A stretch of DNA of 64,000 nt. Origin: Escherichia coli (GTDB lineage Bacteria > Pseudomonadota > Gammaproteobacteria > Enterobacterales > Enterobacteriaceae). The position numbers were made by a program, and so were the translations under genes. The notes under the pieces are model-generated. The model saw only the letters and a list, made by a program, of their open reading frames with translations, was not told the origin of the DNA and did no database searches. Numbering within the stretch: the stretch's first letter is position 1; every line of letters begins with the position of its first letter. The stretch lies in NCBI RefSeq assembly GCF_024298765.1, contig NZ_CP101210.1. One strand, 5' to 3'. This document shows positions 51,097 through 52,014 of this stretch, piece by piece.

Positions 51097-51333
51097 TTAC
51101 CACGCAATCAGTATTGCCAGAGCAAGGCAAACGCAAATCGCAAACAGCGATAAATCCATTAACAAGGGATGCCAGATGTCACCGGCGTAGATCCAGCCTC
51201 GAAGCAGGCGGTGTATGACAAGCCAGATGACGAATCCAAATGCGAAGGCTTTGAAAAACGGAGGAAAGTAGACGGACGCACCGAACACCAGATCTTGTAA
51301 GGGCAATCCTGTTGCATTGAGCATAAACTTCAC
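51097..51333 (-). CDS. ydhI: DUF1656 small membrane protein
   Basis: 78-aa hydrophobic ORF heading the ydhIJK cluster. Confidence 0.85.
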
Positions 51334-51527
51334 AAAGTAGATTCCTTTACGACAGAATATATTGCGTTAGATTAATAAATATTCTTTAAGTGCGAAAAAT
51401 TTACGCGCAATTTCTGAAAAATATGTCTGACGGTAACCAAATGCAGCAATACATTTGTTTTAGCAATACAATTGCTGCACACTATTCTAAAAGCCGCATA
51501 ATATCTTAGCAAGCTAATTATAAGGAG

Positions 51528-51968
51528 ATGAAATTGGAATCGCCACTAGGTTCTGATCTGGCACGGTTGGTGCGCATATGGCGTGCTCTGATAGACCATC
51601 GCCTGAAACCGCTGGAGTTAACACAAACCCATTGGGTTACGTTACACAATATCCATCAGTTACCTCCAGACCAGTCGCAAATTCAACTGGCAAAAGCGAT
51701 TGGCATCGAGCAGCCATCACTGGTCCGTACGCTGGACCAACTGGAAGAAAAAGGGTTAATTTCGCGTCAAACTTGTGCCAGCGATCGTCGGGCTAAACGT
51801 ATTAAACTGACGGAAAAGGCAGAGCCGCTGATCAGCGAAATGGAAGCTGTTATTAACAAAACCCGCGCGGAAATTTTACATGGCATCTCCGCAGAGGAAC
51901 TGGAACAACTGATTAAGCTCATCGCAAAACTTGAGCATAATATCATTGAGTTACAGGCCAAAGGGTGA
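51528..51968 (+). CDS. slyA: MarR-family transcriptional regulator SlyA; annotated start may be the TTG at 51534
   Basis: 146-aa [48 protein letters not shown]...; the K-12 form I recall is 144 aa. Confidence 0.93.
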
Positions 51969-51980
51969 AATGAAGGGGGC

Positions 51981-52004
51981 GTGTGGTCAGTAACCTGACC
52001 ACAC
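51981..52004. terminator. Hairpin between convergent slyA and slyB (putative bidirectional terminator)
   Basis: GTGTGGTCAG-TAAC-CTGACCACAC inverted repeat. Confidence 0.5.
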
Positions 52005-52014
52005 GCAAACTTAT

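Follow-up and report, generated by a model that had tools for sequence, protein, structure and literature searches.

The slyA gene of Escherichia coli is most probably translated from a TTG codon that lies 6 nt downstream of an unused in-frame ATG

Overall, our analysis assigns the translation start of slyA in the window (the whole stretch of E. coli DNA analysed here, 64,000 nucleotides in length) to the TTG at 51534, which gives a protein of 144 aa beginning with MESPLGS, and assigns the in-frame ATG at 51528 to the spacer that follows the Shine-Dalgarno sequence; we put the probability of this reading at about 95%. That slyA starts at TTG is established knowledge, which RefSeq and UniProt-based tables already follow. 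What we add here is an order-wide view, in which a non-AUG start of slyA is shown to be kept across the Enterobacterales with the exception of one Cedecea species.

The slyA locus and its two candidate start codons

The features that the argument needs are given below, named according to the preferred reading.

51367-51378, + strand: second candidate SlyA site TTAGATTAATAA (PMC5797941, "161 bp upstream of slyA")
51506-51517, + strand: SlyA autoregulatory operator TTAGCAAGCTAA, which contains the in-frame TAG 51507-51509 (PMC5797941, "22 bp upstream of slyA")
51520-51545, + strand: 26-nt block TATAAGGAGATGAAATTGGAATCGCCA, made up of the Shine-Dalgarno sequence, the spacer, the start codon and codons 2-4 (column counts in 79 Enterobacteriaceae species)
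51521-51527, + strand: Shine-Dalgarno sequence TAAGGAG, with seven contiguous Watson-Crick pairs to the 16S rRNA 3' end
51528-51530, + strand: unused in-frame ATG, part of the 6-nt spacer ATGAAA at 51528-51533 (aligned spacing of -1; absent in nine of nine distant genera)
51534-51536, + strand: TTG initiation codon, read as fMet (aligned spacing of 5, conservation and literature)
51534-51968, + strand: slyA coding sequence as translated, with TTG start, 144 codons and TGA at 51966-51968 (RefSeq coding sequence, NF002926 and a published N-terminal peptide)
51979-52006, + strand: terminator-like hairpin with a GC-rich 12-bp stem, between the convergent slyA and slyB (consensus scan)

The block at 51520-51545 reads ATAAGGAG ATG AAA TTG GAA TCG CCA, and the wider start region of the window reads TTAGCAAGCTAATTATAAGGAG ATG AAA TTG GAA TCG CCA CTA GGT. 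The ATG (51528-51530), the AAA (51531-51533) and the TTG (51534-51536) are all in frame with the slyA ORF, which comprises 146 codons from the ATG (51528-51968 including the stop) and 144 codons from the TTG, and ends with the TGA at 51966-51968. The nearest in-frame stop on the 5' side of both candidates is the TAG at 51507-51509, and between it and the conserved protein body the only ATG, GTG or TTG codons are ATG 51528 and TTG 51534; since the TAG closes the frame, these two are the sole start candidates. An earlier note on this DNA had read the ORF as beginning with ATG AAA TTG GAA TCG and offering two starts, which is borne out by direct reading of 51528-51536, and had given the K-12 protein as 144 aa from the TTG, in agreement with the 435-nt coding sequence of K-12 C3026 in RefSeq, which maps to 51534-51968. 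A pair of in-frame start candidates lying 6 nt apart is statistically unremarkable; which of them is used is the real question.

On the profile matches, the ORF is identified as slyA, which belongs to the MarR family. It scores 277.6 bits against the SlyA equivalog model NCBIfam NF002926 (cut-off 120), and positions 1-143 of the 144 in that profile align to residues 3-145 of the 146-aa ORF, so that the model start coincides with the TTG. The MarR winged helix-turn-helix is matched by PF01047 at residues 31-89 with 61.5 bits (cut-off 24.6), and PF12802 and PF13463 match the ORF likewise. In the RefSeq annotation of the neighbourhood, ydhKJI (the ydhIJK operon) is divergent upstream, slyB is convergent downstream and anmK is also near. 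Among the nine loci examined outside Enterobacteriaceae, slyB (PF05433) lies downstream of slyA in seven and ydhI (DUF1656) upstream of it in two (L083 and L085); ydhI is also found upstream in a Cedecea locus (L091).

The existing annotation points in two directions. The RefSeq annotation (PGAP) gives slyA as a 435-nt coding sequence at 51534-51968, starting at the TTG, in both K-12 C3026 and strain 104, and the 651-nt slyA region of the window (51330-51980) is 100% identical to that of E. coli strain 104. Meanwhile, 146-aa forms beginning with MKLESPLGS persist in NCBI nr for Salmonella (P0014, with 1556 member sequences) and Klebsiella pneumoniae (P0070, with 1006), and further ones for Enterobacter hormaechei (P0067) and Citrobacter (P0015). 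The database annotation of the slyA start is thus still inconsistent, despite an identical initiation region in those orthologues. Some gene callers also give over-extended slyA ORFs of 181-230 aa. One such call, the metagenomic P0002 (181 aa, ENA), reads through the position of the in-frame TAG 51507-51509 inside the SlyA operator, which implies that a Lys codon stands in place of the TAG in a variant operator, or that the sequencing is in error.

Structural and regulatory work provides further reference points for the N-terminus. The constructs of the Salmonella SlyA structures 3Q5F and 3QPT consist of a tag followed by MESPLGS, that of 3DEU of a tag followed by LESPLGS, and that of the Yersinia RovA structure 4AIH begins with MESTLGS. 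The two distances given in PMC5797941 for the SlyA sites, 22 and 161 bp, fit TTG 51534 only, with the operator centred at 51511.5.

Shine-Dalgarno spacing and conservation across the Enterobacterales

The Shine-Dalgarno sequence TAAGGAG has a calculated duplex energy of -9.3 kcal/mol, which ranks with the strongest values for the 41 starts scored within the 40 kb around it. All 80 Enterobacteriaceae species carry this sequence unchanged, and it is conserved in nine distant genera, with an AAGGAG core and seven to eight contiguous pairs. We define the aligned spacing as the number of bases between the position that matches the last G of the consensus UAAGGAGG and the start codon. With this definition, the TTG has an aligned spacing of 5, which belongs to the modal class and lies within the range of about 4-9 nt expected for Shine-Dalgarno-led initiation, and the ATG one of -1, its A sitting at the very position that matches the last G of GGAGG. 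In other words, ATG 51528 immediately adjoins the Shine-Dalgarno sequence with zero spacer, and has no workable distance to it. As controls we use 29 neighbouring RefSeq-annotated genes with a Shine-Dalgarno run of at least four pairs, 24 of which show a spacing of 4-7 and none a spacing of -1; this control is slightly circular, as gene finders use Shine-Dalgarno models, and it agrees with what is established about E. coli ribosome binding sites.

The mechanism that we propose follows from this geometry. Pairing of TAAGGAG with the 3' end of 16S rRNA would bring the TTG, about 5 nt downstream, into the P site, and the initiator tRNA would there decode TTG 51534 as fMet. Lying within or against the Shine-Dalgarno:anti-Shine-Dalgarno helix, the ATG would be out of reach of the P site as long as the Shine-Dalgarno sequence is engaged, presumably by steric exclusion; it would therefore act as spacer and not as start codon. 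The weak UUG start is itself conserved and holds the level of SlyA low, with selection probably acting on the weakness of the start.

Conservation was examined in two sets of genomes. The scan of close relatives, with one genome per species, covers the best 80 of 438, all of them Enterobacteriaceae with 85-99% protein identity. TAAGGAG ATG AAA TTG is invariant in 79 of these 80 species, with one Cedecea (L046) as the exception; since the ATG and the TTG are both invariant in the 79, this set cannot tell the two codons apart. The distant set consists of nine genera outside Enterobacteriaceae that were fetched singly, a sample that leaves aside Erwiniaceae and, from Pectobacteriaceae, Pectobacterium and Dickeya. 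Their slyA start regions (loci L083-L090 and L092, with the start at position 401) are as follows.

Yersinia: AAAAGGAGG GGCAA TTG
Serratia: TAAGGAGG GGTAA GTG
Hafnia: TAAGGAG AATAAA TTG
Photorhabdus: TAAGGAGG GACAA TTG
Edwardsiella: TAAGGAG ATTAAA TTG
Sodalis: TAAGGAG AGAGAA TTG
Moellerella: TAAGGAGG GAAAA TTG
Ca. Palibaumannia: TAAGGAG AAAAAA TTG
Gibbsiella: AAAGGAGG AAAA GTG

All nine share a Shine-Dalgarno sequence, a spacer of 4-6 nt, a TTG (seven genera) or GTG (Serratia and Gibbsiella) and then GAA or GAG followed by TCN. An ATG two codons upstream, at -6, is absent in all nine of these genera, and in Serratia an in-frame TAA directly precedes the GTG start. The spacer sequence varies freely outside Enterobacteriaceae. 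Because nine of nine distant genera keep the TTG or GTG and lack the upstream ATG, the downstream codon is, judging from these alignments, the ancestral start conserved across the order, and the ATG is seen only within Enterobacteriaceae. On the whole, a non-AUG start (TTG or GTG) is found in 89 of 90 genomes from across the order, the exception being one Cedecea with ATG at this place. This pattern suggests long-term selection for weak initiation of slyA/rovA, and it agrees with the idea, already in print, that SlyA is deliberately held down by weak initiation.

The exception itself is instructive. In Cedecea sulfonylureivorans (L046, 996-1003) a deletion of one nucleotide (T) has turned AAATTG into AAATG, giving TAAGGAGATGAAATGGAATCG, with the result that the upstream ATG is out of frame and an in-frame ATG now stands at the TTG position with an aligned spacing of 4. 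The work of McVicker 2011 would predict a higher level of SlyA in that species. Other Cedecea (L091, 401-430; P0112 and P0114) carry a two-codon insertion near the N-terminus, reading ESPSPLGS versus ESPLGS, and the P0112 and P0114 forms have been annotated from either start, which gives 146 or 148 aa.

Published experiments and comparison with known systems

Salmonella slyA has TTG as its initiation codon according to the title of Kawakami et al. 1999 (PMID 10385201) and to papers citing it, among them PMC3173223, which names Kawakami 1999 as its source for the UUG start. The Salmonella result carries directly over to the window, because the two share an identical initiation region between -28 and +17. 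In E. coli K-12, an AUG in place of the UUG gives more than 5-fold higher SlyA on Western blots and increases fimB expression (McVicker 2011, PMC3173223).

More direct evidence is available from the TRAINSPOTTER study of E. coli K-12 (PMC13245402). Row 352 of its Table S1 lists b1642 slyA with TTG as an annotated initiation site and a proteoform length of 144, and the same row reports an N-terminal peptide from the TTG together with support from Ribo-RET, INRI-seq (INRI) and REPARATION. A Met at the position where TTG encodes Leu has no other possible origin than initiation at that TTG. Table S1 runs in locus-tag order, with b1650 following slyA; among the rows listed, slyA has this one N-terminus only, and the MK-extended slyA peptide occurs nowhere in the supplementary files examined. 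This peptide was searchable, because Arg-C specificity was set and the database covered six frames with NTG starts. A rare proteoform is still compatible with its absence from a single proteomics data set. The same study confirms ten TTG starts among 688 annotated sites and reports 118 alternative initiation sites. A literature search that combined slyA with ribosome profiling or non-canonical starts gave no result that names slyA.

The earlier note had presented the start as an unsettled ambiguity, and this framing is out of date: the analysis of Shine-Dalgarno spacing it proposed has now been run here, the N-terminal proteomics it proposed already exists for K-12, and both favour the TTG.

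Compared with known systems, the window slyA is the E. coli counterpart of the Salmonella slyA case, and the problem noted for K. pneumoniae kvrA is the same one. In Salmonella enterica, two subspecies share the operator, TAAGGAG and ATG AAA TTG GAA TCG CCA CTA GGT with the window, and the protein is 90-92% identical to the window SlyA, so the same ATG/TTG question receives the same TTG answer; the difference lies in the promoter sequences further upstream (PMC6401476). The slyA orthologue kvrA of Klebsiella pneumoniae shares the TAAGGAG ATG AAA TTG arrangement (Klebsiella loci L047, L049, L051 and L054), but its annotation still starts from the AUG (146 aa, P0070); PMC11347178 sets out the AUG/UUG problem for kvrA as well, and its authors state that an experimental determination of the start is still to come. 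Yersinia rovA and the other distant orthologues in Enterobacterales share the Shine-Dalgarno sequence, the 4-6 nt spacer, the TTG or GTG and the GAA/GAG TCN that follows, but differ in their varying spacers and in having no upstream in-frame ATG, and hence no ambiguity; published Y. pestis rovA primers begin with TTGGAATCG. Finally, E. coli genes with a UUG start such as rpsT (PMC13245402, Table S1) resemble slyA in reading a near-cognate start as fMet, in being led by a Shine-Dalgarno sequence and in a low or regulated initiation, whereas slyA adds an unused in-frame AUG 6 nt upstream, hard against the Shine-Dalgarno sequence. slyA belongs to a small class of Shine-Dalgarno-led, UUG-initiated E. 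coli genes and is nothing new in kind.

The right N-terminus (MESPLGS, 144 aa) matters for expression constructs, for antibody and mass-spectrometry targets, and for binding-site coordinates counted from the start. Beyond annotation hygiene the question is of little weight, and that the weak UUG limits the amount of SlyA, and hence fimB expression, has already been published (PMC3173223).

The invariant block around the unused ATG

Across 79 Enterobacteriaceae species not one base of 51520-51545 (-14 to +11 relative to the TTG) varies, and the adjoining operator region (-28 to -15) shows invariance in at least 77 of them. In the same genes, the majority base has a mean fraction of 0.65 at the fourfold-degenerate sites of the coding sequence; of 37 such sites just 2 are invariant, and these lie in codons 3-4 inside the block. 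Within E. coli, the exact core is kept in at least 5406 of the 5423 genomes carrying slyA. Since the spacer is far more conserved than the synonymous sites, it is, as the column counts indicate, under purifying selection, and this as part of a larger block and not as a codon; taken by itself, the conservation pattern of the ATG and the spacer would also fit a functional codon. The constraint on the block could possibly reflect tuning of the weak UUG initiation region, an extension of the Shine-Dalgarno helix through the UGA of AUGA, or a regulator or small RNA whose footprint reaches over from the neighbouring SlyA operator.

An ATG conserved for a non-coding reason would be compatible with the TTG start, and we regard this as a tentative explanation that is somewhat unlikely to hold. 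It would involve either pairing with 16S rRNA (UAAGGAG-A-UGA against 3'-AUUCCUC-C-ACU-5') or the footprint of a regulator or small RNA. In its favour, the duplex predicted with a 13-nt anti-Shine-Dalgarno sequence runs on through the UGA of AUGA and reaches -11.4 kcal/mol as compared with -9.3, a gain of 2.1 kcal/mol, and the invariant block is continuous with the near-invariant SlyA operator. These energies are in-silico values, however, and the families with AATAAA, AGAGAA and AAAAAA spacers manage without such pairing. According to the duplex model, the unused AUG may lie inside an extended Shine-Dalgarno:anti-Shine-Dalgarno helix. At 51528-51531, the UGA of AUGA is complementary to 16S rRNA just 5' of the anti-Shine-Dalgarno core.

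A further proposal would take the AUG against the Shine-Dalgarno sequence as a selected element, acting by extension of the pairing, as a decoy competing with the UUG, or through a rare, condition-specific MK-SlyA, with the block as the footprint of this control; we consider it improbable. If true, such an element would tune the level of SlyA, an H-NS counter-silencer.

A dual start, in which the TTG yields most of the protein as the 144-aa form and the ATG a minor share with an MK extension, perhaps independent of the Shine-Dalgarno sequence under particular conditions, appears very improbable to us. E. coli commonly has alternative starts close to one another, as the 118 sites of PMC13245402 show, purifying selection acts on the ATG and the sequence around it within Enterobacteriaceae, and the kvrA start of K. 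pneumoniae is called open by the authors of PMC11347178. Against this, a single N-terminus is listed for slyA in a study that was built to separate closely spaced starts (PMC13245402), the conserved unit is a block of 26 nt and not the ATG alone, so that it does not point to the codon, and the extension is dispensable in ten lineages, with the upstream start in frame only within Enterobacteriaceae. That ATG 51528 is the true or main start, with SlyA as a 146-aa protein beginning with MKLESPLGS, is hardly credible, although the codon is canonical, gives the longest ORF, is invariant in 79 of 80 Enterobacteriaceae species and underlies many public 146-aa records (P0014 in Salmonella, P0070 in Klebsiella, P0067 in Enterobacter), for it has a nil spacer to the Shine-Dalgarno sequence, is missing in all orthologues examined outside Enterobacteriaceae (with an in-frame stop there in Serratia), is out of frame in L046, and is contradicted both by the N-terminal peptide with Met for the TTG-encoded Leu (PMC13245402) and by the more than 5-fold rise on changing UUG to AUG, which shows that the TTG position limits initiation (PMC3173223).

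Translation from TTG 51534 thus stands as the preferred reading. Structure in the mRNA was also considered as a means of masking one of the starts and was rejected, as the 100 nt at 51484-51583 fold no better than shuffled sequences (z = +1.05). Likewise rejected is a predicted 9-bp hairpin at the UUG (51533-51541 with 51549-51557), in which one to three pairs are broken in nine of nine distant genera with no compensating changes; in Enterobacteriaceae it is kept only through the invariance of the sequence.

A few observations concern the locus more generally. The slyA region is found in 5423 of 5426 complete E. coli genomes and is absent from three, and one of the 5427 slyA matches in this collection belongs to a record that bears a plasmid label. 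The match in strain WCHEC020032 (H30) falls into two places, beginning at query base 131, which points to an insertion between ydhI and slyA. In the E. coli variant P0001, of 162 aa, a stretch of 18 residues within the winged-helix DNA-binding region is duplicated in tandem, which probably inactivates SlyA. Downstream of the gene, the hairpin at 51979-52006 is terminator-like on the + strand and may work in both directions.
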